A DNA stretch of 64,000 nt from Deltaproteobacteria bacterium (GCA_029261815.1 JAJDAQ010000086.1:47448-111447); one strand, 5' to 3'; positions 4,208 through 23,933 are shown, counted from the stretch's first letter. Numbers and translations: made by a program. Notes: generated by a model from the letters alone, not told the origin.

Positions 4208-6712
4208 CTATTCGCCGCCGAACCGGAAGCCGAGTCGGACGCCATAGATGCGTTGGCCGATCGGCCCGAAAGCGGCGGCCACGTAAGGGAGTTGCACCGT
4301 AATCGTGCGCCCGTAGAAGAAGTCCTCTTCCAGGTTCTCGCCGAAGACCTCGACCGAATAGCGACCGTCTGCACTCTCCCAGATGAAGCGGATGTCGGTC
4401 TGGGTGTAGGCCTCGATCCGATCGACCCCGGCCACATTGAAGGGCCTCCGGGTCGAGTCGTCCTTCCACGCGAAGGCGATGACAGGCGTGAGCGTTCCGT
4501 ACTCGCCCAGGTCCCACTCGTAGCGGCTGATCAAGGAGAACGACCATTTTGCTGCGTCTTCGAGCTGGTTCCCAGCGAGATCCTGGAGCGCCGTCGTCTG
4601 GTCCGTGATCTTGGCGATGCATGCCGGGTCACTCAGGGCGACGCCGCGCGGATCGAGGTCGTCCGAGGAGCAGAATTCATCGAACGTGGCATCGAGGTAG
4701 CCGGCTGCGATCTGGATCAGCCAGTCGTCGGTCGGGAACCAGCGCGCTTCGAACTCGATCCCCCAGTTGGTCGCGCCGCCTGCGTTCTCGGTCAGGACCT
4801 GGAAGCCCGCGATCTTGGGAACCTGGAGGTTCGTGTAGTCGTAGTGGAACGCGGTGAGCGCCGTGTTCAGCCGCTGATCTGGCCAGTTCGCCTTCCAACC
4901 TACCTCCCAGGCACGGACGATTTCTTCTTCCACCGGGTTTGGCCTCCCCGGAAGGAGTGCCGGGTCGTCGAACTCGACGATTCCAGCTTTGTATCCCTTC
5001 GAGTACTTGGCGTAGAGCGTCTGGTCCTCGGTCGCGAACCACTTGAGGCCGACCTCGTACGTCATTTCGCGGAAGATGTCCTTGACGTGATTGGATCCGC
5101 CGCTCGTCAGGGGCGTCGGGAGCTCCGTGGTCTTCCGGGAATAGCGATCGCGGTTCTTTCGGACGCCCATGAAGACCTCGACATCGATGGCCTCGGACCA
5201 TTCCGTCCAATCGAAGGGTCGAACCGTCATGTTGGCGAAGGGGGCGAAGCCCGATTCCTCGATGCGGGCGAGGGTTCCGGTCTGCACAAAGGGAACCCGC
5301 GTGAAGTCGTTCCGATAGAGCTCCCGGTCGTACCAGAAGAGGCCCAGTGTCCAATTCACCGGTTGTTCGCCGTCGGAGTGGAGCCGCATTTCGCCGACCC
5401 AGTTCTCGGTCTCGTCGGAGCGATAGTTGTTCACGATCTCGAGGATCGTCCCGTCGACTTCGGCGAAGAACTGCTCCTTTTGCCGGTAGTAGCCGCCAGC
5501 GACGGACAGGACGAGATCGCCGAGCAATGGGACGTTGGCGAAGCGTCGCTCGAAATCCATGTCGGTGAAGTAGACCTCGTTCTCGGGGTCCTGGACATCG
5601 AACGCGTTGGTGGCAAGGCGCCGGTCCCGGTCGTCGGCGATCGTGATGTCGCCGAAGTACGAGGGGTCCCGAAGGACCCCGGGCAGCAGCGTGCCGGCGC
5701 CGTTGACGAGGATATTCTCGAGCGCGTCGTCCTGGGTCTGGATTCCCGGGTCGACGCACAGGGCGGTGACGACGGGTTGGCATGCTGCCAGCGCCACGTT
5801 GGACGCCAGCGCGTAGATCACCGATTGCGGGCTCGTCAGGAGGCTTTGCTTGAACTGCACCAAGCCGTCGTACGGGTCGAAGGGGTGGACCCCGAGTTGC
5901 TGCAAGTCGAAGTTGGACACCCGTGGCGCACTGTCGGCGAACCGGGGAATTCCGACCGTGCCGCTTGCCTCTTCATCCTTGCTCCAATAGCCCCGCCAGT
6001 GGGCGACGGTGTCCTCGTCCGGCTGCCACCGCAGTGTCCCGCGGAACGTCCACGCGTCGGTGCCGCCATCCCGTCGGCGTCCTTCGGTGTTGCGGAGTGC
6101 GGCGTCACGGATGTCCCGCTGGAGAACGAAGCGCGCGGTCAGTCGGTCGTCCCCTTCGCCAAGCAAGGGAACGTTGACGCCGCCGCGAAACTGTCGGCGG
6201 TCGAAGCTTCCGAGCGTGACATCGCCGAACGCTTCCCAGTCGGCGGTGGGCCGTTTCCAGGTCACGTTGATTGCTCCAGCGGTGGCATTCCTTCCGTACA
6301 CCACACCCACCGGGCCACGTTGGACCTCGATGGTCTCGATGTCATAGAGATCGCCGTAGGTTGCCGTCGTGAACTGGAAGATCCCGTTCAAGTGGGCGGC
6401 CACGGGCGATTGGCCCGTGAAGGACTGCGTGATGCCGCGGATCGCGATCGCGCCATTTCCCGCATCCTTGATCTGGGCATTGGGGATGAGGGTGATCACG
6501 TCCTGCAGGGTCTCGATGTTCAGCTCGCGGATCGCACTCTGATCGAATGCCGAGATCGTCGCTGCGACGTCCTGTAGCGATTCGTCGCGCCGCGTGATCG
6601 AGACGCGGATCTCGTCGATTCCCGCGAGGTCATCTGCGGCGCGAACCGGTTCGGCTGTGGGCAGGGAAAGCAGAAGACCTGACGCGAGGCAGAGCAGGGC
6701 GCGCTTCTTCAA
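4208..6712 (-). CDS. TonB-dependent receptor (paralog of 23934-26489)
   Basis: Plug motifs (DEIRVSITRRDESLQDV, IEVQRGPVGVVYGRNATAGAINV) and a long beta-barrel. Likely TTG start at 6712, 5 nt after GAGGAG, giving signal peptide MKKRALLCLASGLLLSLPTAEPVRA. The listed ATG at 6769 is an alternative. Confidence 0.85.
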   Translation of the reverse strand: MKKRALLCLASGLLLSLPTAEPVRAADDLAGIDEIRVSITRRDESLQDVAATISAFDQSAIRELNIETLQDVITLIPNAQIKDAGNGAIAIRGITQSFTGQSPVAAHLNGIFQFTTATYGDLYDIETIEVQRGPVGVVYGRNATAGAINVTWKRPTADWEAFGDVTLGSFDRRQFRGGVNVPLLGEGDDRLTARFVLQRDIRDAALRNTEGRRRDGGTDAWTFRGTLRWQPDEDTVAHWRGYWSKDEEASGTVGIPRFADSAPRVSNFDLQQLGVHPFDPYDGLVQFKQSLLTSPQSVIYALASNVALAACQPVVTALCVDPGIQTQDDALENILVNGAGTLLPGVLRDPSYFGDITIADDRDRRLATNAFDVQDPENEVYFTDMDFERRFANVPLLGDLVLSVAGGYYRQKEQFFAEVDGTILEIVNNYRSDETENWVGEMRLHSDGEQPVNWTLGLFWYDRELYRNDFTRVPFVQTGTLARIEESGFAPFANMTVRPFDWTEWSEAIDVEVFMGVRKNRDRYSRKTTELPTPLTSGGSNHVKDIFREMTYEVGLKWFATEDQTLYAKYSKGYKAGIVEFDDPALLPGRPNPVEEEIVRAWEVGWKANWPDQRLNTALTAFHYDYTNLQVPKIAGFQVLTENAGGATNWGIEFEARWFPTDDWLIQIAAGYLDATFDEFCSSDDLDPRGVALSDPACIAKITDQTTALQDLAGNQLEDAAKWSFSLISRYEWDLGEYGTLTPVIAFAWKDDSTRRPFNVAGVDRIEAYTQTDIRFIWESADGRYSVEVFGENLEEDFFYGRTITVQLPYVAAAFGPIGQRIYGVRLGFRFGGE

Positions 6713-6783
6713 GAAGTCTCCTCGGGCAGCCGGACACAGGCGTGCGGGGGAACCCGGCCATGGTATCACCGACGGCGGATCGG

Positions 6784-6804
6784 AATCCTGCGCGTTCCAG
6801 GATT
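6784..6804. promoter_or_regulatory. Inverted repeat AATCCTG-N7-CAGGATT in a divergent promoter region
   Basis: Perfect 7-bp arms lie between the TonB-dependent receptor start (6712, minus) and the SnoaL-like gene start (6915, plus). Confidence 0.2.
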
Positions 6805-6914
6805 TCGACGGTACCCGCCACTACACTCCTGCGAATTGGGATTTCCCGCGGCCGGTCTGTGCGAGCAGTTCCGCGCCGATACCGACCACGACGATGTGGC
6901 ACTGGAGGCTTGAG

Positions 6915-7340
6915 ATGGGCGCTGTCGAGGATGCCAACAAGGCATTGGCCCGAACGTTCTTCGAGGCATTGAGCACCGCCGATGCTGCGACGCTGGATCG
7001 CCTCTACGCCCCGGACTTCGAGCTCTGGACCGCGGGCTCGCTGCCCTTCTCCGGCCGCAAGACGCGGGAGCAGTCGCTGGCGAATGCGCCGATGGTGCTC
7101 GGCATGTTTCCGGACGGGCTCGCCTTCGAAATCTCGGCGATGACGGCCGAAGGCGAACGCGTCGCGATCGAAGCGGTCAGCAAGGGAACGCATGCCAGCG
7201 GGAAGGCCTACGCGAACGACTACCACTTCCTGATGCGGGTGCGGGACGGCCAGATCATCGAGTTCAAGGAGTACATGGACACCGAGCACGCTCGCGACGT
7301 GTTCTTTGCCGAGGGCGCAGCGCTCGTGGGGACGACCTAG
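6915..7340 (+). CDS. NTF2/SnoaL-like (ketosteroid-isomerase-like) protein
   Basis: ATG at 6915 follows GGAGG at 6904-6908. The pattern ANKALARTFFEALSTADAATLDRLYAPDF is typical of SnoaL-like domains. The listed longer ORF N-terminus is Arg/Ser-rich junk. Confidence 0.75.
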   Translation: MGAVEDANKALARTFFEALSTADAATLDRLYAPDFELWTAGSLPFSGRKTREQSLANAPMVLGMFPDGLAFEISAMTAEGERVAIEAVSKGTHASGKAYANDYHFLMRVRDGQIIEFKEYMDTEHARDVFFAEGAALVGTT

Positions 7341-8535: not shown

Positions 8536-9300
8536 ATGGCCTTGACCTCGAACCAGCGCGCGGACTACGAGCGAGACGGTTTCGTCCTGCTTCCGCGCTT
8601 GATCCCGCAGTCCGAGCTGGCCCGCTGGTCGGCGCGCTTCGAAGACCTGGTATTGGGTCGGGTTCCGGCGCCTGAACGGCTCGTCGTCATGAAGGACGTG
8701 ATGGTTGCGAAGGGCGAGGCTGAGGCGCCGACGCCGCTTCACGCCATCAACAAGATCCTGAGCTTCGAGGAAGACCCCGTGCTCTGGGAGTACGCGGTTT
8801 CCCCTCCGTTGTTGTCCGCCGTCCGCTCGCTGGTGGGCGAAGCGCTCTACTCGATCTCATCGAATGTGTTCAACAAGCCACCGGGCGTGGATGGGCGTCA
8901 CCCGCTCCACCAGGACCTGCGTTACTTCGCGCTGCGCCCGGCGGAGAAGATCGTGGCGGCGTGGACGGCCATCGATGACTGCACGCGCGAGAACGGATGC
9001 CTGGCAGTGATTCCGGGGAGTCACAGGAGTGATCTCCATCGCCACGGGCTGCCGGACTGGGAGCACGTCAACTTCGGGTTCTTCGCCGCCGACGGCGTCG
9101 ACCCGGAGGCCCGCGTGCACATCGAGATGGCACCCGGCGACACCCTGCTTTTTCACCCGCTGCTGGTCCATGGGAGCGGGCGCAATCGGAGCGACGGTTT
9201 TCGACGCGCGATTGCGACCCACTACGCATCCCAGGACTGCGAGCGCCCCGCGGCGGCGCGTAAGCGCCAGCCCGTGATGAAGGCGATCCCGGCGCCCTAG
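8536..9300 (+). CDS. Phytanoyl-CoA dioxygenase (PhyH) family Fe(II)/2-oxoglutarate oxygenase
   Basis: N-terminus YERDGFVLL, HxD motif (HPLHQDLRYF) and distal LLVHGSGRNRS. Confidence 0.8.
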   Translation: MALTSNQRADYERDGFVLLPRLIPQSELARWSARFEDLVLGRVPAPERLVVMKDVMVAKGEAEAPTPLHAINKILSFEEDPVLWEYAVSPPLLSAVRSLVGEALYSISSNVFNKPPGVDGRHPLHQDLRYFALRPAEKIVAAWTAIDDCTRENGCLAVIPGSHRSDLHRHGLPDWEHVNFGFFAADGVDPEARVHIEMAPGDTLLFHPLLVHGSGRNRSDGFRRAIATHYASQDCERPAAARKRQPVMKAIPAP

Positions 9301-9339: not shown

Positions 9340-10653
9340 ATGCGGCCCGACTTCCCGTTCCGCCCGGCCGCGCTGCCGTTCTACTACGGCTGGGTTGTGC
9401 TCGTGGCCTCGACCCTGGGCATCGTGATGAGCGCGCCGGGGCAGACCATCGGTGTCTCCGTCTTCACGGAATCGCTATTGGACGCCACCGGTCTGTCGCG
9501 AGTCGATTTCAGCGAGACCTACCTGATCGGAACGCTGATCAGCGGGCTGTTGCTTCCCGCTGCGGGGGGCTTCGTCGACCGCTTCGGGGTTCGGCGCGGC
9601 GTGGTGCTGGCTTCCGTGGGCCTTGGCAGCGTACTGGTGTTCCTGAGCCAGGTGGACCGGATCGCGGAAGCCGTCGCCGGCCTCGGGCCCTCGCCGCGCG
9701 TTTCTGCCTACGGGCTCCTGGTGCTGGGGTTCCTGGGGCTTCGGTTCTCGGGCCAGGGGATGCTCACGCTCGTCTCGCGGACCATGTTAGGCCGATGGTT
9801 CGAGCGCAGGCGCGGTCTGGTTTCTTCGATCCAGGGCCCGTTTTCGAGCATTGCCTTCGCCAGTTCCCCCGTGGTGCTCGCCGGGTGGGTGTCGGCATCC
9901 GGGTGGCGCGGCGCGTGGCTCGAGATGGCCCTCGTCGTGGGGGTCGGCATGGCGTTCGCGGGTTGGCTGCTGTTTCGGGAAAGCCCCGAAGCCTGTGGTC
10001 TGGTTCTCGACGGTGGCCTTTCGCCGATCGACGCGTCCACGAGTGCGCCTCCGCCCGCGACGCGTGACTTCACGCGAGGCGAGGCGCTGCGAACAGCCGC
10101 GTTCTGGGTGGTCACGCTCGGGATCGGGAACCACGCGATGGTGGGGACCGGCATGGCGTTCCATATCGTCGACCTCGGTGCGGAGGCCGGGCTCACCGAG
10201 GCGCAATCCCTGGGGCTCTTCCTGCCGGTCACCCTTGTCAGCGTGCCGACCGGAATCCTGGTTGGGGCCGCCGTCGATCGCTTCCCGATTCGTTTCCTCG
10301 TCATGGCCATGATGGTCGGTCAGATGCTGATGTTCGGGCTGGCCCCGCACCTGGGCGACCCGTTGCTGCACGCGATCTGCATCGCGGGCTGGGGATTCTC
10401 CGGGGGGTTCTATGGGCCGCTGACCGTGGCCGCGCTCCCGAATTTCTTCGGCCGTGAGCACCTGGGTGCGATCCAAGGCGTGATGATGATGGTAATCGTC
10501 GTCGCGAGCGCCCTCGGGCCGGCATTGCTCGCCTACGTCAAGGATGCCTTCGGTTCCTACACGCCCGGACTGCACGCGTTGGCCTTCCTGCCGCTGGTGG
10601 TTCTGCTCGTGGCGCCTTTCACTCGCAATCCGCAGCAGCGATCGGCGGTCTGA
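9340..10653 (+). CDS. MFS transporter
   Basis: 437 aa, hydrophobic throughout with about 12 predicted helices and an MFS-like loop (GGFVDRFGVRRG). Confidence 0.8.
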   Translation: MRPDFPFRPAALPFYYGWVVLVASTLGIVMSAPGQTIGVSVFTESLLDATGLSRVDFSETYLIGTLISGLLLPAAGGFVDRFGVRRGVVLASVGLGSVLVFLSQVDRIAEAVAGLGPSPRVSAYGLLVLGFLGLRFSGQGMLTLVSRTMLGRWFERRRGLVSSIQGPFSSIAFASSPVVLAGWVSASGWRGAWLEMALVVGVGMAFAGWLLFRESPEACGLVLDGGLSPIDASTSAPPPATRDFTRGEALRTAAFWVVTLGIGNHAMVGTGMAFHIVDLGAEAGLTEAQSLGLFLPVTLVSVPTGILVGAAVDRFPIRFLVMAMMVGQMLMFGLAPHLGDPLLHAICIAGWGFSGGFYGPLTVAALPNFFGREHLGAIQGVMMMVIVVASALGPALLAYVKDAFGSYTPGLHALAFLPLVVLLVAPFTRNPQQRSAV

Positions 10654-10713
10654 GCCCACCCGGACCGGGTTCGTCTACACTCGCCCGTCCCGTTGCTGGA
10701 GGAACTGGAGCCG

Positions 10714-13700
10714 ATGAGCCTCGAGAGTGTATTGGTGGCCAACCGTGGCGAGATCGCCGTGCGCATCCTGCGCGCGGCGGCGGAACTGGGCATCGAATCG
10801 GTCGCGATCCACTCCTCGGATGACGCGGCCTCGTTGCACGTCCGCAAGGCCGACCGCGCAATCGCGCTCTCGGGAAAGGGCGCTGCCGCCTATCTCGATA
10901 TTCCAACCGTCGTAGCGGCCGCCGTGAGTGCGGGCGTCCAGGCCGTGCACCCGGGCTATGGCTTCCTGTCCGAGAACGCCGAGTTCGCCCGCCAATGCCG
11001 TGAGGCCGGTCTCGTCTTCGTCGGGCCCGCGAGCGAGACCCTGGCCCAGTTCGGCGACAAGGCCCGTGCCCGTGAGCTGGCGCAGGCGTGCGACGTTTCC
11101 GTGCTCAACGGCACCTCGGGACCGACCTCGCTGGACGACGTCTGCGCGTTCTTCGACTCCCTGGGCGACGGCGCAGCCGTGATGATCAAGGCGATTGCGG
11201 GCGGCGGCGGGCGCGGCATGCGTGCGGTGGAACGCCGCGAGGATCTGGCCGAGGCATACGATCGTTGTCAGTCGGAGGCGACCAAGGCGTTCGGGAGTGG
11301 CGACGTCTACGCTGAGGAACTCGTACGACGTGCGCGTCACATCGAAGTGCAGATCCTCGGAGACGGCTCCGATGTCAGCCATCTGCACGAGCGTGAGTGC
11401 ACGCTGCAGCGCCGAAACCAGAAGCTGATCGAGATCGCGCCCAGCCCCACGTTGGCCGCGTCGACCCGCGACGCACTGACCGAAGCCTCGGTCCGGATGG
11501 CGCGGGCCGTCGACTACGCAAGCCTGGGTACGTTCGAGTTTCTGGTGGACGCAGAAGATGAGACCCGCTTCGCATTCATCGAAGCCAACGCGCGCTTGCA
11601 GGTCGAGCACACGGTGACTGAAGAAGTGACCGGGATCGATCTGGTGCGTGCGCAGCTCGAGATCGCCGGCGGTGCGACATTGACGTCACTCGGACTCGAT
11701 CAGGCCGACATCCCCGCGCCCCGGGGTTTCGCGATCCAGTGTCGCGTCAACACCGAGAAGATGAACAAGAAGGGGACACCGCTCCCGAGTGGGGGGAAGC
11801 TCACGGCGTTCGAGCCGCCGTCGGGTCTGGGCATTCGCACGGATACCTACGGTTACACCGGCTACACGACGAGCCCCGCGTTCGACTCGCTACTGGCGAA
11901 ACTCATCGCCCATTCGACGTCGCCGCGGTTCGAGGACGCCGTCATACGCGCACATCGCGGCCTCGCGGAGTTTCGCATCGAGGGCTTTGCGACCAACATC
12001 GGATTCCTCCAGGCGTTGCTGCGCCACCCCGACGTGGTCGCAAACCGTGTGACGACCAAGTTCGTCGAGGACAACGCCCGGGAACTCGCCGGGTCGCCGA
12101 TCGAGACACGGACCTTCCCGGCCGCCGATTCGGAACCACCGGCCTCGCCGGAGGCTTCGGTAGCCGGGCTCGCCGGCGTGAAGCTCGATTCAACGGATCC
12201 CCTTGCCGTACTCGACCATGGGAAGGCGGAGAGGGCGGTGCAGTCATCGAAGCCGGCGGCGACGCCGGTCGCCGAGTCCACGGGCCCGGCTGGGGCCATC
12301 GCCGTCGCCGCGCCGGTCCAGGGCACCATCGTCAGTCTCGAGGTCGCGGAGGGGGACCTCGTCCATGCTGGACGCCCGCTCCTGGTCATGGAAGCGATGA
12401 AGATGGAACACGTCGTCACGGCCGGAGTGTCGGGTCGTGTCGCGAGTCTTGGGGTGGCGGCTGGCGACACCGTGCTCGAAGGCCACCCGCTTGTCTTCAT
12501 CGAAGCCCGCGAAGTCGCGGCTGAGCGGGAGGACGAAGCCGCCCAGATCGATCTGGATCATGTCCGACCGGACCTGGCCGAGGTCTTTGACCGCCACGCC
12601 ATGGGTTTGGACGCGAAGCGCCCCAAGGCGGTGGAGAAGCGCCGAAAAACCGGGCAAAGAACGGCGCGCGAGAACGTCGCCGACCTGGTCGATGAGGGAA
12701 GCTTCATCGAGTACGGCGGACTCATGCTGGCGGCACAACGGCGCCGTCGCAGCGTGGAAGACCTGATCGAAAATACGCCCGGCGACGGCATGATCGCCGG
12801 CGTCGGGACCGTCAACGCGGCGCTCTTTCCGGACACCGACGCGCGCTGCGTCGCGATGTCATACGACTACACGGTCCTGGCTGGAACGCAGGGCGGGCAG
12901 AACCATCGCAAGAAGGATCGGATGTTCGAGCTCGCCGAAGAGTGGCAGCTCCCGGTCGTGCTCTTCAGTGAAGGGGGTGGCGGCCGCCCCGGTGATACCG
13001 ATGGCGTGGGCGGCAGTGGACTCGATTGTTGGGCGTTCCAGTACTTCGGCGCTCTGTCGGGGCTGGTGCCGCTCGTGGGCGTCAACAGCGGCTATTGCTT
13101 TGCCGGCAACGCCGCATTGCTTGGCTGTTGCGATGTCGTGATTGCGACGGCCAATTCGAACATCGGAATGGGTGGCCCCGCGATGATCGAAGGCGGCGGG
13201 CTCGGAGTGTTTCGCCCGGACGAAGTCGGGCCGATGGAAGTGCAGCGCGCCAACGGCGTGGTCGATATCGCGGTCGAAGACGAGGCCGAGGCGACCGCGG
13301 TGGCGAAGCAGTACCTCTCGTATTTTCAAGGTGCGCTCGAGGACTGGGATTGCGCGGACCCGCGGCTCCTCCGAAGTGCGATCCCCGAGAACCGCCTGCG
13401 GATCTACGACGTGCGGGAGGTCATCGCCGGTCTCGCGGATACCGGTTCGGTCCTGGAGCTGCGTCGCGATTTCGGCCACGGGATGGTCACGGCGTTCGCA
13501 CGTGTCGAGGGTCGCCCGATCGGGATCATCGCGAACAACCCGACCCACCTGGCCGGCGCCATTGACAGTCCGGGTGCAGACAAGGCCTCGCGATTCATGC
13601 AGCTCTGTGATGCCTTCGATGTGCCCATCCTGTTCTTGTGTGACACGCCCGGAATCATGGTCGGTCCCGAGGCCGAGAAATCAGGAACCGTCCGCCACGC

Positions 13701-14118
13701 CGCACGCATGTTTGTCACAGGCGCGAGCCTGAGCGTGCCCTACTTCACGATCGTCCTGCGCAAAGGTTACGGGCTCGGCGCTCAAGCGATGGCGGGCGGG
13801 AGCTTCAAGGCGCCGTTCTTTACCGTCGCATGGCCTACAGGAGAGTTCGGCGGCATGGGGCTCGAGGGGGCGGTGAAGCTTGGCTACCGGAAGGAACTCG
13901 CTGCGCTCGAGGACCCGGACGAGCGACGTGCCCTCTACGACAAGATGGTTGCCGGCATGTATGACCGGGGGAAGGCCGTGAGCACAGCGTCGTTCTTCGA
14001 GATCGACGACGTGATCGACCCCGCCGACTCCCGTCACTGGATCTCGAGGGCGTTGGCTTCGGTTCCGCCGGCCCCGCGCCGTCGCACGAAGAAGCGGCCG
14101 TTCGTCGACACCTGGTAA
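10714..14118 (+). CDS. Single-chain acyl-CoA carboxylase (biotin carboxylase + BCCP + carboxyltransferase fused)
   Basis: N-terminal BC/ATP-grasp domain (VLVANRGEIAVRILRAA, HIEVQILGD). Biotinyl domain with the EAMKMEH motif. C-terminal about 520 aa is a carboxyltransferase (YDYTVLAGTQGGQNHRKKDR, FLCDTPGIMVG). ATG at 10714 preferred over the listed TTG at 10693. Confidence 0.85.
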   Translation: MSLESVLVANRGEIAVRILRAAAELGIESVAIHSSDDAASLHVRKADRAIALSGKGAAAYLDIPTVVAAAVSAGVQAVHPGYGFLSENAEFARQCREAGLVFVGPASETLAQFGDKARARELAQACDVSVLNGTSGPTSLDDVCAFFDSLGDGAAVMIKAIAGGGGRGMRAVERREDLAEAYDRCQSEATKAFGSGDVYAEELVRRARHIEVQILGDGSDVSHLHERECTLQRRNQKLIEIAPSPTLAASTRDALTEASVRMARAVDYASLGTFEFLVDAEDETRFAFIEANARLQVEHTVTEEVTGIDLVRAQLEIAGGATLTSLGLDQADIPAPRGFAIQCRVNTEKMNKKGTPLPSGGKLTAFEPPSGLGIRTDTYGYTGYTTSPAFDSLLAKLIAHSTSPRFEDAVIRAHRGLAEFRIEGFATNIGFLQALLRHPDVVANRVTTKFVEDNARELAGSPIETRTFPAADSEPPASPEASVAGLAGVKLDSTDPLAVLDHGKAERAVQSSKPAATPVAESTGPAGAIAVAAPVQGTIVSLEVAEGDLVHAGRPLLVMEAMKMEHVVTAGVSGRVASLGVAAGDTVLEGHPLVFIEAREVAAEREDEAAQIDLDHVRPDLAEVFDRHAMGLDAKRPKAVEKRRKTGQRTARENVADLVDEGSFIEYGGLMLAAQRRRRSVEDLIENTPGDGMIAGVGTVNAALFPDTDARCVAMSYDYTVLAGTQGGQNHRKKDRMFELAEEWQLPVVLFSEGGGGRPGDTDGVGGSGLDCWAFQYFGALSGLVPLVGVNSGYCFAGNAALLGCCDVVIATANSNIGMGGPAMIEGGGLGVFRPDEVGPMEVQRANGVVDIAVEDEAEATAVAKQYLSYFQGALEDWDCADPRLLRSAIPENRLRIYDVREVIAGLADTGSVLELRRDFGHGMVTAFARVEGRPIGIIANNPTHLAGAIDSPGADKASRFMQLCDAFDVPILFLCDTPGIMVGPEAEKSGTVRHAARMFVTGASLSVPYFTIVLRKGYGLGAQAMAGGSFKAPFFTVAWPTGEFGGMGLEGAVKLGYRKELAALEDPDERRALYDKMVAGMYDRGKAVSTASFFEIDDVIDPADSRHWISRALASVPPAPRRRTKKRPFVDTW

Positions 14119-14140: not shown

Positions 14141-15217
14141 ATGTTCGACCTGGATCCCGGCGATGAGTTGGCCCTGATCGTCGATACTGCCCGGAAGCTT
14201 GCAGAAACGGAGCTGACGCCCCGAATGAGGGAGTCCGAAGCCGCGCGCGCCGTCGATGCCGGTCTGCTCGCGGCCTGGGATGAAGTCGGTCTCGCGGCGC
14301 TTGAGCTGCCCGAGCGCCACGATGGTGCTGGCCTCGGCTGTGTCGCGCGTGTGCTGGTCAACGAGGAACTTGCGGCCGGCGATGCCGGCGCGGCGCTCGC
14401 GCTCGACCCGTTCGGGCCGGCGTTGACGACATTGCTCGAAGTCGGCGGCGACGATGCAGTGACCGCGCTGACGAGTGCCTTGGATCACGGGGCGTCCCGC
14501 GCGATCCTCGTGATCGTCGACGCCGTCGATGTCTCCGCTGACACGCTGACGCTGGACGCGGCCTGGGTTCCGGCGGATGAGGCGGGGGCCGTCGTCGTCC
14601 TGGCCGGCTCCGACGCGTTTCTGGTCACCGAGGGGATCTCCCTCGAGCGCGTTCGCGGGGCAGGTCTGCGCGCCGCGGGTGCTGCAAGGCTCGAACTCGA
14701 GGGAGCCTCGATCGCCGGCCGCTGGACGGACGCCGCTGGTGCGGAGCGGGCCCGAGCGCGTGCGCGCCTCCATGCGGCATCGCTGCTGCTGGGTGTGATG
14801 CGAAGCGCGTGCGATTTCTCCACCGCCTACTCCCAGGAGCGCGAGGCCTTCGGGAAGCCGATCGGTCACCACCAGGCCCTTGCGTTCCTGATGGTCGACA
14901 TGCGGATGGCGCTCGATGCGGCGCGTTTGCTCGTGCATGAGGCGGCTTGGCGCGTCGACCGCGCGTTGCCCTGCGCCGCAGAGGCGGCCGCCGCATGGGC
15001 CGAGTGCATTGAAGCCTCGCGGCTGATCGGCCCCAACGGGGTCCAGGTGCTCGGCGGCCACGGCTTCATGGCCGACTATCCGGTTGAAAAACACATGCGA
15101 GAGTCGCGTGCACTCGGTTTGCTATTCGGGGGCTACGACGCGGCCATCGAGGAAGCGGGCCAACGACTCGTGGAAACCGACACGCCGCTTGACCTCGGCC
15201 AGTCAGGAGCGCTGTGA
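14141..15217 (+). CDS. Acyl-CoA dehydrogenase-fold protein, probably a non-catalytic partner subunit
   Basis: ACAD N- and C-terminal helical domains are recognisable (YSQEREAFGKPIGHHQALAF). The position of the catalytic-base motif (I/V)YEGT reads LLFGGY. The middle domain is Ala/Gly-rich. Confidence 0.7.
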   Translation: MFDLDPGDELALIVDTARKLAETELTPRMRESEAARAVDAGLLAAWDEVGLAALELPERHDGAGLGCVARVLVNEELAAGDAGAALALDPFGPALTTLLEVGGDDAVTALTSALDHGASRAILVIVDAVDVSADTLTLDAAWVPADEAGAVVVLAGSDAFLVTEGISLERVRGAGLRAAGAARLELEGASIAGRWTDAAGAERARARARLHAASLLLGVMRSACDFSTAYSQEREAFGKPIGHHQALAFLMVDMRMALDAARLLVHEAAWRVDRALPCAAEAAAAWAECIEASRLIGPNGVQVLGGHGFMADYPVEKHMRESRALGLLFGGYDAAIEEAGQRLVETDTPLDLGQSGAL

Positions 15218-16389
15218 TGGAATTCGCGATCGACGCCGCGATGCGGGAACGAATCGAAGAGGCGCGAGAAGTCGGGCAGCGTGAGATTCGCCCCGCCGGC
15301 CTCGAGGCCGATCGGAATGCCGCGCCGATTCCGGTGGGAGATCCCTTCTTCGACCGGTGTCTGGAACGCGGCGAAGGACGAACGCGCTGGGCGGGCCCGA
15401 ACGCGCCGAAATCGAAGCCCCGAAAATCGAACGTGATCTTGAGCCTGCTGTTGGCCGAGGAACTCGCCTACTGGGACCGCGGTGTGATCAACGCCACGCC
15501 AGGCCCTGGACTCCCGGAACAGAGCGTGATCGGCATGGGGACCGATGAGCAGAAGGAGCGCTTCCTCGGCCCCTTCCTCGAACCCGACAAGCCCCGCTGG
15601 GCTTGTTTCGGAATGACCGAGCCGGGGGCCGGTTCCGACGCGGCCGCGATTCGTACACTGGCGCGCAGGGACGGTGACCACTGGATCCTGAACGGGGCCA
15701 AGTGCTTCATCGGCGCGGCCTCGCGTTCCGACTGGCTGCTCATCCAGGCCACCGTCGACCCGAGCAAGGGTCGGGCGGCACAGCGCGCATTTCTGGTCGA
15801 GCAGGGAACGCCTGGGCTCGGCGGGTTCAAGATCGAAAAGAAAATGGGGCTCAAAGCGTACGAATCGACGTCGTTCACGCTTGAAGACGTCCGCCTCCCA
15901 GCCTCTAATTTGCTAGGCGGCGAGGAACGTTACGAGCGAAAGGCCGGCTTCAAGGCCGCGATGCAGACGTTCAATGCCGGGCGGCCAGTGATCGCGGCGA
16001 ACGCCGTGGGAATCGCTCGCGCGGCTCTCGATGAATCGATCCGGTTCGCCCGCGAGACGGACCTCCTCGGGCGTGACCGGGTGCGCGACCGGATCGAAGC
16101 GATCGCGCGAAAAGTGCGGAAGGCGCGGCTCATCTGCCTCCGTGCGGGTTGGCTGGCCGATCAGCAACGGGCCAACATCATCGAGGCGTCGATGTCGAAA
16201 GCGATGGCGGCCCAGGTGGCGCAGGAAGCCGCGAGCATGGGTCTCGAACTGCTGGGTCTGGTCGGGGGACGCGGGGACCATCTGATCGAGAAGCTCTACC
16301 GCGATGCGAAGGCGATGGACATCGTCGAGGGCACGGGGCAGATCCAGCGGATGATCATCGCGCGGCAGCTCGTCGGGCTGCCGCGTTAG
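15217..16389 (+). CDS. Acyl-CoA dehydrogenase (catalytic subunit)
   Basis: CFGMTEPGAGSDAAA, and YRDAKAMDIVEGTGQIQ with the catalytic Glu present. The start overlaps the stop of the upstream ACAD-fold gene; RBS CAGGAG at 15204-15209. Confidence 0.85.
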   Translation: MEFAIDAAMRERIEEAREVGQREIRPAGLEADRNAAPIPVGDPFFDRCLERGEGRTRWAGPNAPKSKPRKSNVILSLLLAEELAYWDRGVINATPGPGLPEQSVIGMGTDEQKERFLGPFLEPDKPRWACFGMTEPGAGSDAAAIRTLARRDGDHWILNGAKCFIGAASRSDWLLIQATVDPSKGRAAQRAFLVEQGTPGLGGFKIEKKMGLKAYESTSFTLEDVRLPASNLLGGEERYERKAGFKAAMQTFNAGRPVIAANAVGIARAALDESIRFARETDLLGRDRVRDRIEAIARKVRKARLICLRAGWLADQQRANIIEASMSKAMAAQVAQEAASMGLELLGLVGGRGDHLIEKLYRDAKAMDIVEGTGQIQRMIIARQLVGLPR

Positions 16390-16401
16390 GCGGGAGAAGA
16401 A

Positions 16402-17184
16402 ATGCCTGATTTCGGTCGATTCGGCGACGTGGCCGTGACCCTCGACGACGGGTTCGTGGCACTCGCCGAGGTCCAGCGTCCGCCCAACAACTTCTTCGAT
16501 CACGCGCTGATCGCATCGCTGGCGGACGCGTTCGAGGCGCTCGATGCGGAGGCCGGATGCCGCGCGATCGTGCTCGCATCCGACGGGCGGCATTTCTGCG
16601 CGGGCGCGAATTTCGCTTCAAAGGAGCCCGCGACAACGGGAACGTCGGGAACGCATCTCTATGACGAAGCCGTGCGTTTGTTCGCAACACAGACGCCCGT
16701 CGTCGCCGCAGTTCAGGGGGCTGCCATCGGCGGCGGGTTGGGCCTCGCACTGATGCCCGACTTCCGGGTGGCTGCACCGGAAGCGCGCTTCAGTGCGAAC
16801 TTCGCCCGACTCGGCTTCCACCACGGTTTTGGGCTGTCGGTGACACTCCCGAGGTTGGTCGGTCCACAAGCGGCGGCCGAACTGCTCTACACGGGGCGGC
16901 GGCTCAAGGGGGAGGAAGCGCACGCGTTGGGCCTGTGCGACCGACTCGTTGCGTTGGCCGACGTCCGCGACGAGGCGCATGCGCTCGCGGCCGAGATCGC
17001 GACCTCGGCGCCGCTCGCCATCGCAAGCATTCGGGAGACGCTCCGCGGCGGGCTCGCCGACGAAATCCGTACTGCCACCGACCGCGAGAAGGCTGAGCAG
17101 GACCGGCTTCAGCGGACCGCTGATTTCAAAGAAGGCACCCGCGCCATGGCGGAACGAAGAGCCCCCCGGTTCGAGGGGCGCTGA
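16402..17184 (+). CDS. Enoyl-CoA hydratase/isomerase (crotonase) family
   Basis: Crotonase oxyanion-hole blocks (FCAGANF, AAVQGAAIGGGLGLAL). Confidence 0.85.
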   Translation: MPDFGRFGDVAVTLDDGFVALAEVQRPPNNFFDHALIASLADAFEALDAEAGCRAIVLASDGRHFCAGANFASKEPATTGTSGTHLYDEAVRLFATQTPVVAAVQGAAIGGGLGLALMPDFRVAAPEARFSANFARLGFHHGFGLSVTLPRLVGPQAAAELLYTGRRLKGEEAHALGLCDRLVALADVRDEAHALAAEIATSAPLAIASIRETLRGGLADEIRTATDREKAEQDRLQRTADFKEGTRAMAERRAPRFEGR

Positions 17185-17185
17185 A

Positions 17186-19369
17186 TCAAGGGACCTGCGT
17201 CGGGCGCACCTGGATCGGGATCGCGCTCATCAGCGGGATCCCGGTGTAGGGGTCGTAGTCGCGGTCGACCGGGGTCAGTCGCCCGGTGTTGCTCCCGGTG
17301 TTCCGAACGTCAAGATCGGCGCGGCTGCCCGGGACGTCGCCGTACCCATGCGGCATCGAAACCAGGCCGCGGCGGAGCCCGTCCTCGGGCTGGACGACGC
17401 CAAGAATCGCGGCGTGGTCGGACTGGATCTCGACGATGTCGCCGGCCGCTACGCCGAGGGTGGCCATGTCATCCGGATGCATGAAGGCCGGGTTCGTCTT
17501 CCACTGCCGGGTGAGCCTGGGGATGTCTCGTCCCGCCGAGTTGTGGCTCGAGAGCAGGCGACGGCTGATCAGTCGGAAGGGGTAGTCGCCCGCGGTCGGC
17601 ATCGGCTCGACAGCGACTTCCGCGAGTTCGCCCATCATCAGGTCATTCGCGAGGTCGAGTCGGTCCTCGCAGCCGGTGCGCTTCGGGAGCACGGTACTGG
17701 TCGGTGCCTCGAAGACGGCGCCATGCGGGTGACGCTTCACTTCGGACAGCGGGACACGCGAACCCGTGGTCAGCATCTCGAACAGCCCGTCGGTGGTTGG
17801 CGGTCGTTCCATGTCGAGTTCGAAGACCGCAGGGTTCTCGACGGTCGGACCCCAGGAGTACGACGACGTCACGGTCAAGGGAAGTCCCATCGCACGGCCG
17901 AGGCCGTAGAAGAACGCCCACTCTTCGATGACATCCGATCCTGTCGGCGGATCGACCAGGGCGGGCGCGTACTGGGCGTAGGGCATGCCATAACCCATCG
18001 CGTAGGGAACGAGCGTTTCTGTCGGGAGCGACATCCCCGGTTGTTCGAGCGAGAGCCGGGGTGCGATGACGTAGTCGGCAAGCTGAGCCGTCGCGGACAT
18101 CTTGATGTCACAAGTCACGAGGAGCTCGAGCGCTTCCATCGCTGCATGCGTCTTGAGTTGGTCGGGCCACGCGGCCATTGGATTTCCGCCGATGCAGAAG
18201 AGCGCCTTTACCTGCCCCGGTCCCTCCAGCAGGATCTCGTCGGCCAGCGCCGCGGTGGGTAGGCCGGCCGCGGTGTCGGTCAGACCCCGGATGCGAAGTC
18301 GCTCGCCGAACCCCCAGCCCGGCGTCGGTGCCGAGGGTTCCGCACGGACCTCGACCGGCGGTAACAGGGCGCCGGGGTTCGGGAGCAGCTCGCCGGCTCG
18401 GAGCCAGCGGCCGCATAGCGTGTTCAGGCAGAGCAGGAGGTACTCCGTGAGGTTTCCGCGGCGGGCCATGTTCGGCCCCGTCCCCGCATTCGCGCAGCCG
18501 CGGCTGCCGCCGGCGAAAACGCGCGCGGCGCGCACGATTTCCTCGGCCGGAACATCTGCGCGCCGTGAGACGGCTTCGGGCGTAAAGGGGGCCACGGCCG
18601 CGCGCAGGTTCTCGAAGCCGGCGGCGTTCTCCTCGATGAAATCCTTGTCGTGGAGACCCTCGTCGATGATGACGCGGAGGATGCCCGCCAGGACGGTCGG
18701 GTCTTCGCCCGGGCGCGGTTGCAGGTGGACGGCGGCCTTTCGCGCCGCGTCGCTGCGGCGCGGATCGATCACGACGAGCTGGAGGCCGTCCTTGACCGCG
18801 CGATCGAGGTGCCAAGCGGGGTTGTGTACGGGCACGCCGATGGACTTCGACACGCTCGGGTTGGCGCCGACCAACATCCAGGTGTCCGCGCCTTGCCACG
18901 GCTGCGCGCCTGCGGCCCACCGGCCGTGCAGGGCGGGTGCGATCATCTTGCCCGGCTGATCGATCGTGGCGCTGGTGAAGCGCATGGGCGATCCGATCGC
19001 GTTCATCCATGCCATCGCGACGGGGACTGCGGCCGGGTACGGAAACGAGAACGTGCCGGTGTAGATCGCAACCGATCGCGGGCCGTGCTCGTCGAGAATG
19101 GCCTGCACGCGGGCGGCGACCTCGGCGATCGCCTGTTGGTGGGGAATGGCGTCGTGCCCTCCAGCGGCATTGCGCTTCTGGCTATGCAGCAGGCGGTCCG
19201 GGTGGGCGTGCTGTTCGGGGAGGGCATGCCCCTTCGGGCAGGCGTAGCCGTGGTAGATCGGGTTCTCCCGGTCGCCACGCACTTTCACGGCGCGCCCGTC
19301 TTCGACATCGACGAGGATTGCGCACGATGCGTGGCAGAACCGACAGATCGACGGATGGGTTTCAGTCAT
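17186..19369 (-). CDS. Molybdopterin (bis-MGD) oxidoreductase, cytoplasmic, with an N-terminal [4Fe-4S] motif
   Basis: 727 aa with CRFCHASC...CPKG (CxxCxxxC...C). MopB blocks, no twin-arginine signal, uninterrupted frame. Paralog of 54568-56745. Confidence 0.8.
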   Translation of the reverse strand: MTETHPSICRFCHASCAILVDVEDGRAVKVRGDRENPIYHGYACPKGHALPEQHAHPDRLLHSQKRNAAGGHDAIPHQQAIAEVAARVQAILDEHGPRSVAIYTGTFSFPYPAAVPVAMAWMNAIGSPMRFTSATIDQPGKMIAPALHGRWAAGAQPWQGADTWMLVGANPSVSKSIGVPVHNPAWHLDRAVKDGLQLVVIDPRRSDAARKAAVHLQPRPGEDPTVLAGILRVIIDEGLHDKDFIEENAAGFENLRAAVAPFTPEAVSRRADVPAEEIVRAARVFAGGSRGCANAGTGPNMARRGNLTEYLLLCLNTLCGRWLRAGELLPNPGALLPPVEVRAEPSAPTPGWGFGERLRIRGLTDTAAGLPTAALADEILLEGPGQVKALFCIGGNPMAAWPDQLKTHAAMEALELLVTCDIKMSATAQLADYVIAPRLSLEQPGMSLPTETLVPYAMGYGMPYAQYAPALVDPPTGSDVIEEWAFFYGLGRAMGLPLTVTSSYSWGPTVENPAVFELDMERPPTTDGLFEMLTTGSRVPLSEVKRHPHGAVFEAPTSTVLPKRTGCEDRLDLANDLMMGELAEVAVEPMPTAGDYPFRLISRRLLSSHNSAGRDIPRLTRQWKTNPAFMHPDDMATLGVAAGDIVEIQSDHAAILGVVQPEDGLRRGLVSMPHGYGDVPGSRADLDVRNTGSNTGRLTPVDRDYDPYTGIPLMSAIPIQVRPTQVP

Positions 19370-22424: not shown

Positions 22425-22438
22425 TTGAACATGATAAA
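22425..22438. promoter_or_regulatory. Operator-like site TTGAACATGATAAA (site 2, 19 bp downstream of site 1)
   Basis: The left half-site is perfect and the right half degenerate. It overlaps an extended -10-like TGATAAAGT on the + strand. Confidence 0.5.
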
Positions 22439-22514
22439 GTCGGCGGCGCGAGGGCACTCCCGCCCCGCCGACGCGGGCTGTCCGGCCCCTGCTGAGTCCC
22501 GAGAGGAGCGCCAC

Positions 22515-23852
22515 ATGGCTGCCAGTCCCGAAGAGAAGCCCTTCCACCTGCAGGGCAACTTCGCCCCGGTTCCCGAAGAGATGACCGAGGAGAACCTCGA
22601 GGTCATCGGCGCGATCCCGCCCGAACTCTCCGGCCTCTACGTCCGAAACGGCTCGAACCCGGCCACGGGTGAGTCCGAGCACTGGTTCCTGGGCAACGGC
22701 ATGGTCCATGGCGTCCGCCTCGATGGCGGCAAGGCCTCGTGGTACCGGAACCGCTACGTGCAGTCCTTGATGCTCACCGACCCCGATGCCAAGCGGATCT
22801 CGGACAAGGGTGAAATGGACTACCGCGTCTCGGCCGCCAACACGCACGTGCTCAAGCATGGCGGAAAGCTCCTGGCGCTTGAGGAAGGCTCCTTCCCGTA
22901 CGAGCTGACGGATGAGCTCGAGACGGTCGGTGCCTTCAACTACGGCGGCAAGCTGAACACCTCCTTCACTGCGCACCCGCACATCTGCCCCGTCACGGGC
23001 GAGATGATCGGCTTCGGCTACGGCCAGCTTCCGCCCTACCTGACCTATCACCGCATCAGCCCGGACGGCAAGCTCGTGCAGTCGGAGGTCATCGATGTGC
23101 CCGGCCCGACGATGATGCACGACTTCTCGATCTCCGAGAAGCACGCGCTGTTCATGGACCTGCCGGTCGTGTTCGATATGCAGGCCGCACTCGCAGGCAC
23201 CATGCCGTTCAAGTGGAGCGACGACTATGGCGCCCGCATTGGCATCATGCCCCGGACCGGCGGCAACGCCGATGTGAAGTGGTTCGAAATCGATCCCTGC
23301 TATGTCTTCCATACCGTGAACGCATGGGACGAAGGCAACAAGGTGGTGTTCGATGTCTGCCGCATCAGTGAAGTCTGGCGTGACGCAGGCGACATGGGTG
23401 GCGGCAACGGAAAGCAGACGCTGCATCGCTTCACCTTCGACCTCGACACCGGAAACGTCGGTGAACAGACCCTGGACGAACGCGGCATGGACTTCCCGCG
23501 CGTGGCAGATGCCCGGGTCGGCCTGAAGAACCGCTACGCCTACACGCTGCAGTTCGGCGAGCTCGGTTCCTTCGCGGGTCATCTCAAGTTCGACCTCCAG
23601 ACCGGAAAGAGTGAGCTTCACGCCTATCCCGAGGGAGCGTCTCCGGCCGAGGCCGTCTTCGTGGCGGCGCCGGGTGCTGATGCGGACTCCGACGAGGGAT
23701 GGGTCATGAACTACGTCTACGACGACGGCTCCGGAAAGAGCGAACTCGTCATCCTCGACGCACAGAATTTCAGCGGCGATCCGGTGGCCCGGGTCAAGTT
23801 GCCGCAACGCGTTCCCTTCGGTTTCCACGGCAGCTGGGCCGGCGACGCCTAG
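22515..23852 (+). CDS. Carotenoid cleavage oxygenase family protein
   Basis: ATG at 22515 follows GAGAGGAG. N-terminal signature LQGNFAPVPEE...LEVIGAIPPELSGLYVRNGSNP and MMHDFSISEKHALFMDLP. Confidence 0.85.
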   Translation: MAASPEEKPFHLQGNFAPVPEEMTEENLEVIGAIPPELSGLYVRNGSNPATGESEHWFLGNGMVHGVRLDGGKASWYRNRYVQSLMLTDPDAKRISDKGEMDYRVSAANTHVLKHGGKLLALEEGSFPYELTDELETVGAFNYGGKLNTSFTAHPHICPVTGEMIGFGYGQLPPYLTYHRISPDGKLVQSEVIDVPGPTMMHDFSISEKHALFMDLPVVFDMQAALAGTMPFKWSDDYGARIGIMPRTGGNADVKWFEIDPCYVFHTVNAWDEGNKVVFDVCRISEVWRDAGDMGGGNGKQTLHRFTFDLDTGNVGEQTLDERGMDFPRVADARVGLKNRYAYTLQFGELGSFAGHLKFDLQTGKSELHAYPEGASPAEAVFVAAPGADADSDEGWVMNYVYDDGSGKSELVILDAQNFSGDPVARVKLPQRVPFGFHGSWAGDA

Positions 23853-23933
23853 CGAGCCTCCCCTTCAGGTCCGCGCGTCCGTTGGAGGGGTTCCACGGCG
23901 CTTCGGGCCTGCTCTTTGATTCGAGGAGAAATC

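Follow-up and report, generated by a model that had tools for sequence, protein, structure and literature searches.

A predicted single-chain acyl-CoA carboxylase of the LCC/YCC family in a lineage-specific gene run of a deltaproteobacterium

The window analysed, a stretch of 64,000 nucleotides from the genome of a deltaproteobacterium, contains on the plus strand one open, uninterrupted reading frame at 10693-14118 (ORF scan), in which an ATG at 10714 is preceded by GGAGGAACTGGAG; a start at this ATG yields a carboxylase of 1134 amino acids, the length also of an identical database protein (P0001). From Pfam, PDB matches and the latter protein, the product of 10714-14118 (+) is predicted to be a single-chain biotin-dependent acyl-CoA carboxylase of the LCC/YCC family. 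Its biotin carboxylase (BC) domain (aa 3-452, 10720-12069) has matches to three Pfam families, Biotin_carb_N (aa 3-110), CPSase_L_D2 (aa 115-324) and Biotin_carb_C (aa 342-452), scores 485 bits against the BC structure 5h80 over aa 5-459, and carries the motifs GGGGRGM (aa 163) and RLQVEHTVTE (aa 294). There follow a biotinyl (BCCP) domain (aa 531-595, 12304-12498; Pfam Biotin_lipoyl, 51.6 bits) and a carboxyltransferase (CT) domain (aa 643-1122, 12640-14079; Pfam Carboxyl_trans, 248.7 bits, profile positions 2-483 of 493) with the motif GGGGRPGD. The biotin-carrying residue, Lys563 (codon 12400-12402), lies within EAMKME (aa 560-565), which conforms to the (A/E)AMKM biotin-attachment site of LCC/YCC proteins. 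By Pfam, the order BC-BCCP-CT in one polypeptide, spanning aa 3-1122 of 1134, is that of the LCC/YCC architecture, and the gene looks intact because the BC, biotinyl and CT motifs are all present. A single ORF with BC, an EAMKME biotinyl domain and a full CT is what the first-pass annotation of this DNA had described, and the ORF scan, Pfam and motif search bore it out.

The carboxylase gene lies after a gene for an MFS transporter of the oxalate/formate-antiporter or monocarboxylate-transporter type (9340-10653, +; Pfam MFS_1), whose highest-scoring NCBIfam model, that of an L-lactate MFS transporter, stays under its cutoff with 94 bits. It precedes a pair of acyl-CoA dehydrogenase (ACAD) genes and a gene for a crotonase-fold protein (16402-17184, +; Pfam ECH_1, 181 bits), all on the plus strand and closely packed according to ORFs and Pfam, as had been claimed. 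The co-oriented run probably begins one gene earlier, at a gene for a PhyH-family Fe(II)/2-oxoglutarate dioxygenase (8536-9300, +; Pfam PhyH, 155 bits) that is separated from the MFS gene by 39 nt and is divergent from an APH-family gene. Gaps of 22 nt or less, as annotated earlier, were found downstream of the carboxylase gene (22, -4 [an overlap] and 12 nt), but not upstream of it, where the distance from the MFS gene is 60 nt with the ATG start or 39 nt with an upstream TTG. A scan of the window returned no promoter-like sites, terminator-like sites only at the level of shuffled sequence, and no terminator-like site between plus-strand genes; no Rfam families or tRNAs were found in the window. 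The short gaps (60, 22, -4 and 12 nt) without a terminator-like site are compatible with co-transcription, and hence with the genes being truly linked in function in this lineage. The run is part of a larger island, which by Pfam includes TonB-dependent receptors, an SCPx-type thiolase with a DUF35 protein, short-chain dehydrogenases, and carotenoid and Rieske oxygenases (a carotenoid-type oxygenase at 22425-23852), and which is proposed to serve the catabolism of hydrophobic or branched carboxylates. Relatives of the surrounding genes, where named, are from Proteobacteria and Myxococcota MAGs.

The two ACAD genes (14141-16389), of which the start of one overlaps the stop of the other by 4 nt, are predicted to encode a heteromeric enzyme with one subunit lacking the catalytic Glu. 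The product of 14141-15217 (+), a putative non-catalytic (beta-type) subunit, matches the N-terminal and C-terminal ACAD domains in Pfam but not the middle one, and in the alignment has Phe329 opposite the catalytic Glu of the other subunit (LLFGG versus IVEGT); it has weak full-length matches to subunits of alpha2beta2 ACADs (6wy8, 4x28_D). The product of 15214-16389 (+), a putative catalytic (alpha-type), MCAD-like subunit with middle and C-terminal ACAD domains, retains the catalytic Glu in DIVEGT and scores 215 bits against 1ukw and 207 bits against MCAD. A division of labour between one subunit with the catalytic Glu and another without it is known from the alpha2beta2 ACADs of steroid degraders (PMC11153573), and the window pair resembles ChsE4-ChsE5, ChsE1-ChsE2 and IpdE1-IpdE2 in being adjacent and translationally coupled, with one Glu lost. 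Similarity to IpdE2 is low, however (36 bits against an NCBIfam cutoff of 450), and the catalytic subunit, unlike the ACADs of steroid degraders, is closest to MCAD-type enzymes; its partner is a glutamate-less crotonase, whereas steroid systems have a MaoC-type or EchA19-type hydratase. In at least 10 loci the two genes stay together. As an alpha2beta2 ACAD, their product would be a heterotetramer with one FAD for each alpha-beta dimer.

The crotonase-fold protein is missing both hydratase glutamates, having GGGLGLAL where hydratases have GGGxELAL and ANFARLG in place of xPExxLG. The two positions are occupied by Gly and Phe in all of 20 sequences (that of the window and 19 aligned relatives at 73-85% identity), among which His85 and His140 are also invariant. 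Both crotonase glutamates are essential for hydration according to mutagenesis (PMC5651017), and a hydratase step is doubtful because the protein invariably lacks them. It falls below every NCBIfam cutoff. PaaG-type isomerases (4fzw_C, 3hrx, 6sl9, 2ej5) likewise have no hydratase glutamates and share the motif F-x-x-(A/N)-F-x-x-x-G, but have GLVPD(S/A)G where the window protein and its relatives have GFH(H/Q)GFG. The Asp of the former motif, which is the catalytic residue, has given way to an invariant Gly, and an invariant His stands two residues before it. EchA6, an ECH that has no catalytic activity and shuttles acyl-CoA (PMC7688586), offers a precedent for a non-catalytic protein of this kind. 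The ACAD-ACAD-crotonase arrangement was found without an LCC gene in at least 10 other loci (L087-L091, L094, L095, L099, L100 and L101), and none of 84 loci of relatives of the crotonase-fold protein contained an LCC gene; in one of the former (L090) the arrangement is followed by a GST gene on the minus strand, as in the window, while the upstream genes differ. By its distribution, this arrangement is an independently conserved cassette.

Comparison with solved structures assigns the product of 10714-14118 to the single-chain LCC/YCC family, already known, of which it is a genuine and by its motifs intact representative. The LCC/YCC holoenzyme is a homohexamer with swapped domains. It scores 1111 bits against MapLCC (4rcn_A) in two stretches that cover BC, BCCP and CT (query aa 5-465 and 513-1113), whereas the low-complexity linker between them (aa 466-512) has no aligned counterpart. 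Common to both proteins are a single chain of about 120 kDa that carries BC, linker, BCCP and CT in this order, an AMKM biotinylation site and the CT motif GGGGRPGDTD. They differ in host, that of the window protein being judged Gram-negative from the several TonB-dependent receptors that the window encodes; the window gene is set in a transporter/ACAD/crotonase run. The LCC structure was reportedly published in 2015 (Nature 518:120). Next to 4rcn come 5fif (CT, 636-637 bits over aa 610-1134) and 5h80 (BC), solved as isolated domains only, which belong to the single-chain YCC of Deinococcus radiodurans and were reportedly described by Hagmann et al. in Structure in 2016. The earlier assignment to the single-chain LCC family, with MapLCC as the best solved structure and these domain structures after it, thus stands. 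The family is very large, with at least 8000 proteins at E<=1e-50 and matches in at least 594 stretches of species-representative genomes from many phyla, and the best match among GTDB representatives has 69% identity.

Relatedness of the CT domain was assessed as a ranking of HMMER scores against PDB chains, not as a tree; in this ranking it is related to LCC rather than to PCC, ACC, MCC or GCC. The LCC entries came first (4rcn, 689 bits; 5fif, 637 bits) and every other family scored at most 243 bits, namely 12S transcarboxylase (243 bits), PCC beta (200-224 bits), GCC beta (152 bits) and MCC beta (134 bits). AccD5, AccD4 and AccD6 are also among the nearest alpha-carbon CTs after the LCC family, and GCC beta and MCC beta rank below every PCC, AccD and 12S entry, being the most distant acyl-CoA carboxylase CTs. 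The best NCBIfam CT model for the protein was that of methylmalonyl-CoA decarboxylase alpha, CT-specific models being nearly absent from NCBIfam. No paralogous CT genes were present among 172 fetched loci. The first-pass annotation had held that clustering with ordinary PCC or ACC would tell against its reading of the gene; by score ranking, the CT is not that of an ordinary PCC, yet it lies on the PCC side and not on the MCC/GCC side. From homology and this ranking, we infer that the CT acts on the alpha-carbon.

That reading had likened the run to the dehydrogenase-carboxylase-hydratase logic of the Atu and Liu pathways, a bypass of beta-methyl branches in which the ACAD would make a 3-methyl-2-enoyl-CoA that is gamma-carboxylated, hydrated by the crotonase and relieved of acetate by a lyase. 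The match is superficial, consisting of a dehydrogenase, a carboxylase and a crotonase on one strand with short gaps, since AtuC/AtuF (GCC) and LiuB/LiuD (MCC) are likewise biotin-dependent acyl-CoA carboxylases of catabolic operons and work alongside an ACAD and a member of the crotonase family. The upstream gene of the PhyH family, named after phytanoyl-CoA dioxygenase, and the carotenoid-type oxygenase also hint at isoprenoid-like substrates. However, GCC and MCC are two-subunit alpha6beta6 enzymes that carboxylate the gamma-carbon of 3-methyl-2-enoyl-CoA, whereas the window carboxylase is a single chain from one ORF with no separate alpha and beta subunits, and its CT scores lower against GCC and MCC beta than against LCC, PCC or 12S chains and by this ranking is not of their lineage. 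The GCC and MCC pathways also need a true hydratase and a lyase, neither of which is evident at this locus: the glutamate pair essential for hydration (PMC5651017) is absent from the crotonase-fold protein and its 19 aligned relatives, and no HMG-CoA-lyase-type match was obtained by Pfam among 40 window ORFs, a set that leaves out several short ORFs, one of 260 aa and one of 263 aa. Furthermore, the ACAD/crotonase cassette is widespread without the carboxylase, LCC is widespread without the cassette and has different neighbours, and the ACAD pair is gone from one close relative. The logic formerly proposed is therefore not supported: the gene neighbourhood lends no support to LCC having an Atu-like role, a terpene-style branch-bypass pathway is not supported for this locus, and a gamma-carboxylase of a methyl-branch bypass is unlikely. 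An Atu/Liu-like sequence of reactions as a whole has a very small probability.

Among 84 loci whose LCC orthologues have 54-73% identity, not one has orthologous MFS, ACAD-pair or crotonase neighbours, and none of the gene families around LCC recurs in more than 11 of the 84. The arrangement is common only to two close relatives, represented by three loci, with LCC of 80-81% identity. In L171 (81%) the LCC gene is followed by an orthologue of the ACAD beta gene, and in L001 and L002 (80%) the crotonase-fold gene comes directly after LCC, with no ACAD pair. Only these three have MFS orthologues (80-83%) directly upstream of LCC, and PhyH orthologues are at the same position in L001 (75%) and L171 (77%); in a Myxococcota locus (L067), a 69% PhyH orthologue lies about 3 kb upstream of LCC. 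In L001 the LCC and crotonase-fold genes have stayed adjacent although the ACAD pair was lost, which counts against a mere juxtaposition with the cassette. The carboxylase is an additional member of an already-known family and the operon is lineage-specific. The apparent operon is a weak clue to function because the neighbourhood is confined to a narrow lineage and built from two independently distributed modules.

The explanation that we consider probable, though well short of assured, is that an LCC/YCC member, acting as a broad-specificity alpha-carboxylase, is encoded within a catabolic island in a run (PhyH-MFS-LCC-ACAD-ACAD-crotonase) that is a lineage-specific juxtaposition of two modules. 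By analogy with the family, the BC domain would use ATP and bicarbonate to carboxylate the biotin on Lys563, the BCCP domain would ferry carboxybiotin to the CT domain, and the latter would pass CO2 to the alpha-carbon (C2) of an acyl-CoA to form a 2-carboxyacyl-CoA (alkylmalonyl-CoA). Acyl-CoA thioesters produced or imported in the island may be the substrates, and the upstream PhyH-MFS-LCC block and the independent ACAD/crotonase cassette would have been set side by side in this lineage. As judged from sequence, broad-specificity alpha-carboxylation is the most likely function of the protein.

A housekeeping or anaplerotic role, in which the enzyme would carboxylate propionyl-CoA or acetyl-CoA from odd-chain or 2-methyl-branched beta-oxidation and its synteny with ACAD genes would be incidental, is rather unlikely. 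LCC genes are flanked by unrelated genes in most sampled genomes and occur in many phyla, and the SCPx-type thiolase and DUF35 protein of the window form a pair typical of 2-methyl-branched beta-oxidation that releases propionyl-CoA. Against such a role, Gram-negative bacteria normally use AccABCD for malonyl-CoA, and the LCC of P. aeruginosa is said (Tran et al. 2015) to be dispensable and linked only to the utilisation of certain carbon and nitrogen sources. A dedicated substrate is also suggested by the short distance to a transporter gene. Characterised LCCs accept C2-C16 acyl-CoAs, in keeping with a housekeeping role, but their Km favours long chains (PMC6491548). For PA1400, the literature confirms only biotinylation of the protein. 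The claim that physiological substrates of the LCC family are poorly defined remains valid, as a literature search found no later paper defining one.

It is highly doubtful that carboxylation serves to activate a substrate for the crotonase-fold protein, which would use the 2-carboxyacyl-CoA made by LCC, either decarboxylating it to an enolate, in the way of CarB-type enzymes and of decarboxylases with a crotonase fold, or serving as a carrier of acyl-CoA in the manner of EchA6 (PMC7688586), in a new pathway. The crotonase-fold protein invariantly lacks both the hydratase residues and the PaaG-type Asp and yet is conserved, with its two invariant histidines, and its adjacency to LCC outlasts the ACAD pair in L001, as such coupling would have it. 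Elsewhere, however, it is linked to the ACAD pair and not to the carboxylase (LCC in 0 of 84 loci), the adjacency to LCC occurs in one narrow lineage only, where plain inherited synteny explains it, and the pairing of a carboxylase with a decarboxylase would be futile unless coupled to bond formation. There is likewise only a slim chance that LCC, the heteromeric ACAD and the crotonase-fold protein constitute a real, previously undescribed pathway of this lineage, in which a bulky or branched acyl-CoA would be alpha-carboxylated and then undergo decarboxylative or isomerising crotonase-fold chemistry. Such a pathway, if true, would reveal for the first time what an LCC protein acts on physiologically and which enzymes are its partners.

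LCC/YCC proteins have been structurally characterised since 2015 with no physiological substrate assigned, and a conserved operon would have been a useful clue. The analysis also exposed a widespread, uncharacterised cassette of a heteromeric ACAD and a crotonase without known catalytic residues, which may deserve study. Family III CoA-transferase genes directly adjoin LCC in 11 of the 84 LCC loci, but across these loci their density (1.36 per 100 kb) does not exceed that of control loci (1.71). PhyH-family genes are near LCC in 10 of the 84 (0.63 versus 0.32 per 100 kb in control loci), counts too few for a convincing enrichment. Some other LCC loci (L172, L019 and L058) have unrelated ACAD or crotonase genes nearby, so a looser link of LCC to acyl-CoA oxidation is possible.

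The open frame at 10693-14118 on the forward strand, taken from the ORF listing of the window, encodes a product of 1134 aa from an ATG at 10714, which is preceded by the ribosome-binding region GGAGGAACTGGAG; the identical database protein (P0001) is equal to it in length. Pfam matches assign Biotin_carb_N, CPSase_L_D2 and Biotin_carb_C (biotin carboxylase, BC) to aa 3-452, Biotin_lipoyl (the biotinyl domain, BCCP) to aa 531-595, and a nearly full-length Carboxyl_trans domain (carboxyltransferase, CT) to aa 643-1122. The biotinyl lysine is residue 563 (nt 12400-12402) within EAMKME (aa 560-565), and the BC glycine-rich loop, RLQVEHTVTE and GGGGRPGD, of the type found in LCC (long-chain acyl-CoA carboxylase) enzymes, are present. 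The first-pass annotation, which described a single ORF with BC, a biotinyl domain containing EAMKME and a full CT, is correct according to the ORF listing, Pfam and these motifs.

Among all PDB chains, the best match of the protein was the LCC 4rcn (1111 bits, over BC and BCCP-CT), followed by 5fif (CT domain, 636 bits) and 5h80 (BC domain, 485 bits), which we take to be domains of a single-chain carboxylase of Deinococcus radiodurans. When the CT domain alone was scored against PDB, 4rcn (689 bits) and 5fif (637 bits) were followed by 12S transcarboxylase (243 bits), propionyl-CoA carboxylase (PCC) beta (200-224 bits), AccD5, AccD4 and AccD6 (184-192 bits), Mtb AccD1 (162 bits), geranyl-CoA carboxylase (GCC) beta (152 bits), 3-methylcrotonyl-CoA carboxylase (MCC) beta (134 bits), and glutaconyl-CoA decarboxylase (69 bits). 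No NCBIfam model claims the protein, the top CT model (methylmalonyl-CoA decarboxylase alpha) falling well under its cutoff. By this score ranking, its membership in the LCC/YCC family is clear; outside that family, its nearest relations are alpha-carbon enzymes, and MCC and GCC, whose gamma-carboxylation the Atu/Liu analogy would need, are the most distant of the acyl-CoA carboxylases. Those LCCs that have been characterised act on saturated acyl-CoAs from C2 to C16, carboxylating them at similar kcat (PMC6491548), and a search of later literature found no work defining a physiological substrate for the family, in keeping with the earlier remark that such substrates are poorly defined. The best reading is that the LCC would act as an alpha-carboxylase on acyl-CoA thioesters made in the surrounding catabolic island; a housekeeping role as a propionyl/acetyl-CoA carboxylase is a less probable alternative. 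The first pass thus correctly recognised a further representative of an enzyme family already known, here encoded in an operon that is lineage-specific.

The co-oriented gene run probably begins with a PhyH-family dioxygenase gene (8536-9300), 39 nt 5' of the MFS transporter gene (9340-10653, forward strand). Gaps of 22 nt or less had been claimed throughout, and this holds downstream of the LCC gene (22, -4 and 12 nt) but not for the 60 nt between the MFS and LCC genes. Since these gaps are short and a promoter/terminator scan found no terminator-like site on the forward strand between the genes, the LCC gene is probably cotranscribed with its neighbours.

Downstream lie two acyl-CoA dehydrogenase (ACAD) genes that overlap by 4 nt, and a crotonase-fold gene (ECH*, 16402-17184, forward strand). 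The larger product (391 aa) is an MCAD-like ACAD, scoring 215 bits against 1ukw, whose DIVEGT still holds the catalytic Glu. Its 358-aa partner lacks a Pfam middle-domain match, carries Phe at the position of that catalytic Glu (LLFGG versus IVEGT), and has only weak full-length PDB matches, all to subunits of alpha2beta2 ACADs; the pair fits the division of labour in such enzymes, in which one subunit has the catalytic Glu and the other does not (PMC11153573). In an alignment with three true hydratases, the 260-aa ECH* product, which falls under every NCBIfam cutoff, lacks both catalytic glutamates (GGGLGLAL for GGGxELAL, ANFARLG for xPExxLG), which are essential in hydratases (PMC5651017). 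Both substitutions, as well as His85 and His140, are invariant in 20 ECH* sequences of 73-85% identity. The residue pattern resembles that of PaaG-type isomerases, except that the Asp of their GLVPD motif, the catalytic residue, is an invariant Gly in ECH*. The proposed logic of the Atu/Liu terpene and leucine pathways, a bypass of beta-methyl branches, fails on four defining features: the CT is remote from MCC and GCC, the carboxylase is a single chain, the crotonase lacks the hydratase glutamates, and a Pfam scan of 40 ORFs of the window turned up no lyase of the HMG-CoA type. Such a bypass is most improbable here, and the data do not support the analogy, attractive though it is.

The LCC family is very large, with at least 8000 database proteins at E<=1e-50, among which the best 120 relatives share 66-81% identity. 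With each species represented by a single genome, at least 594 relatives were confirmed, and the matches listed include Binatia, Chloroflexota, Acidimicrobiia, Pseudomonadales, Phenylobacterium, Myxococcota and others. When the nine neighbouring proteins of the window were compared with 86 LCC loci, most with up to 10 kb of flank per side, orthologous neighbours were found only in L001 and L002, which represent the same 80% identical relative (MFS 80%, crotonase 83%) and lack the ACAD pair. Clustering of all flanking ORFs found no family common to more than 11 of 84 loci: short-chain dehydrogenases reached 11, ACADs 9, crotonases 7, and two clusters resembling family III CoA-transferases 9 and 6. 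Relatives at 68-73% identity, looked up individually, had unrelated neighbours; at L172 (LCC 72%), an unrelated ACAD and a PaaG-like crotonase are close by. L171 (LCC 81%) is syntenic with the window (thiolase, DUF35, TonB receptor, SnoaL, APH on the reverse strand, PhyH, MFS, LCC) until its contig ends 93 codons into the small-ACAD orthologue. The arrangement is therefore confined to a narrow clade and is variable even there.

At 11 of 84 loci, belonging to several phyla, the LCC orthologue has a family III (CaiB/BaiF-type) CoA-transferase-like gene no more than 450 bp away (among L020-L084; for example L045 1046-2266, L034 13362-14552 and L023 13476-16055), although the overall density of this family shows no excess over control loci; this adjacency may hint at racemisation or at the handling of dicarboxyl-CoA products. 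Orthologues of the PhyH-family gene are 69-77% identical, and one also occurs near LCC in a distant Myxococcota genome (L067, 6266-7045; order PhyH, crotonase, alpha/beta-hydrolase, LCC), and both L001 and L003 have a PhyH gene (6033-6803 and 12974-13852) and an Amidohydro_3 gene with LCC. The PhyH family as a whole is near LCC at 10 of 84 loci, a weak enrichment.

The segment at 14141-17184 (non-catalytic small ACAD, catalytic ACAD, crotonase) recurs widely in metagenomes. Three ECH* homologues examined in context all follow a small and a large ACAD in that order with no carboxylase, and LCC is absent from all 84 loci of ECH* relatives. The orthologous ACAD pair is directly 5' of ECH* in L087-L091, L094, L095, L099 and L100; in L101 a contig end leaves only the large ACAD visible. 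L090 has the cassette alone, followed by a reverse-strand GST gene as in the window but with different upstream genes (glycerol-3-phosphate dehydrogenase and others), the window and the truncated L171 combine it with PhyH-MFS-LCC, and L001 has PhyH-MFS-LCC with ECH* only. It follows from these three states that the ACAD pair and the LCC block come and go independently of each other. Transfer of a 2-carboxyacyl-CoA from LCC to the glutamate-less ECH*, which adjacency inherited within one lineage would favour, is very unlikely, and the coupling of LCC to its neighbours is best read as not obligate. The cassette is uncharacterised and more unusual than the LCC itself. A molybdopterin oxidoreductase gene (17186-19369, reverse strand; Fe4S4, Molybdopterin, Molydop_binding) lies between ECH* and the GST gene; it looks like a local insertion, having no counterpart in L090, where GST follows ECH* directly, or in L001, where two small ORFs intervene. 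A second gene of the same type is at 54568-57069 (reverse strand).

Gene content marks the window as a catabolic island from a Gram-negative bacterium. Its 64 kb hold four to five TonB-dependent receptor genes, including those at 4208-6769, 23916-26489, 31815-34277 and 36349-39462 (counterparts in L001/L171), the second directly following a carotenoid-type (RPE65-family) oxygenase gene (22425-23852), which points to large hydrophobic substrates being taken up and cleaved. Pfam also identifies an SCPx-type thiolase with a DUF35 (ChsH2-type OB-fold) protein, several short-chain dehydrogenases, a Rieske oxygenase, a luciferase-like monooxygenase, an acyl-CoA synthetase and a second crotonase, a predicted repertoire consistent with the breakdown of hydrophobic carboxylates that are bulky or branched. 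DUF3604 proteins (window 2-1801; L003 3254-5152; L088 3363-5603) recur near LCC and ACAD-ACAD-ECH* loci, always amid genes of acyl-CoA metabolism. The SnoaL ORF listed at 6594-7340 (forward strand, 248 aa) overlaps an opposite-strand TonB receptor gene; its true start is probably near 6940, because of this overlap, the shorter orthologues in L001 and L171 (132-134 aa) and a Pfam match that begins at aa 117. For three sizeable ORFs, at 58739-62047 (forward, 1102 aa), 30285-31469 (reverse, 394 aa) and 26940-27725 (reverse, 261 aa), Pfam gives no match at E<=1e-5; their GC3 is coding-like. A 2-oxoacid dehydrogenase E1 component is encoded close to a fusion protein (41285-42253 and 43145-44551) in which lipoyl and E3-binding domains are combined with an alpha/beta-hydrolase fold in place of the usual acyltransferase core, an architecture resembling AcoC of acetoin dehydrogenase; an acyl-CoA synthetase gene (44555-46084) follows.
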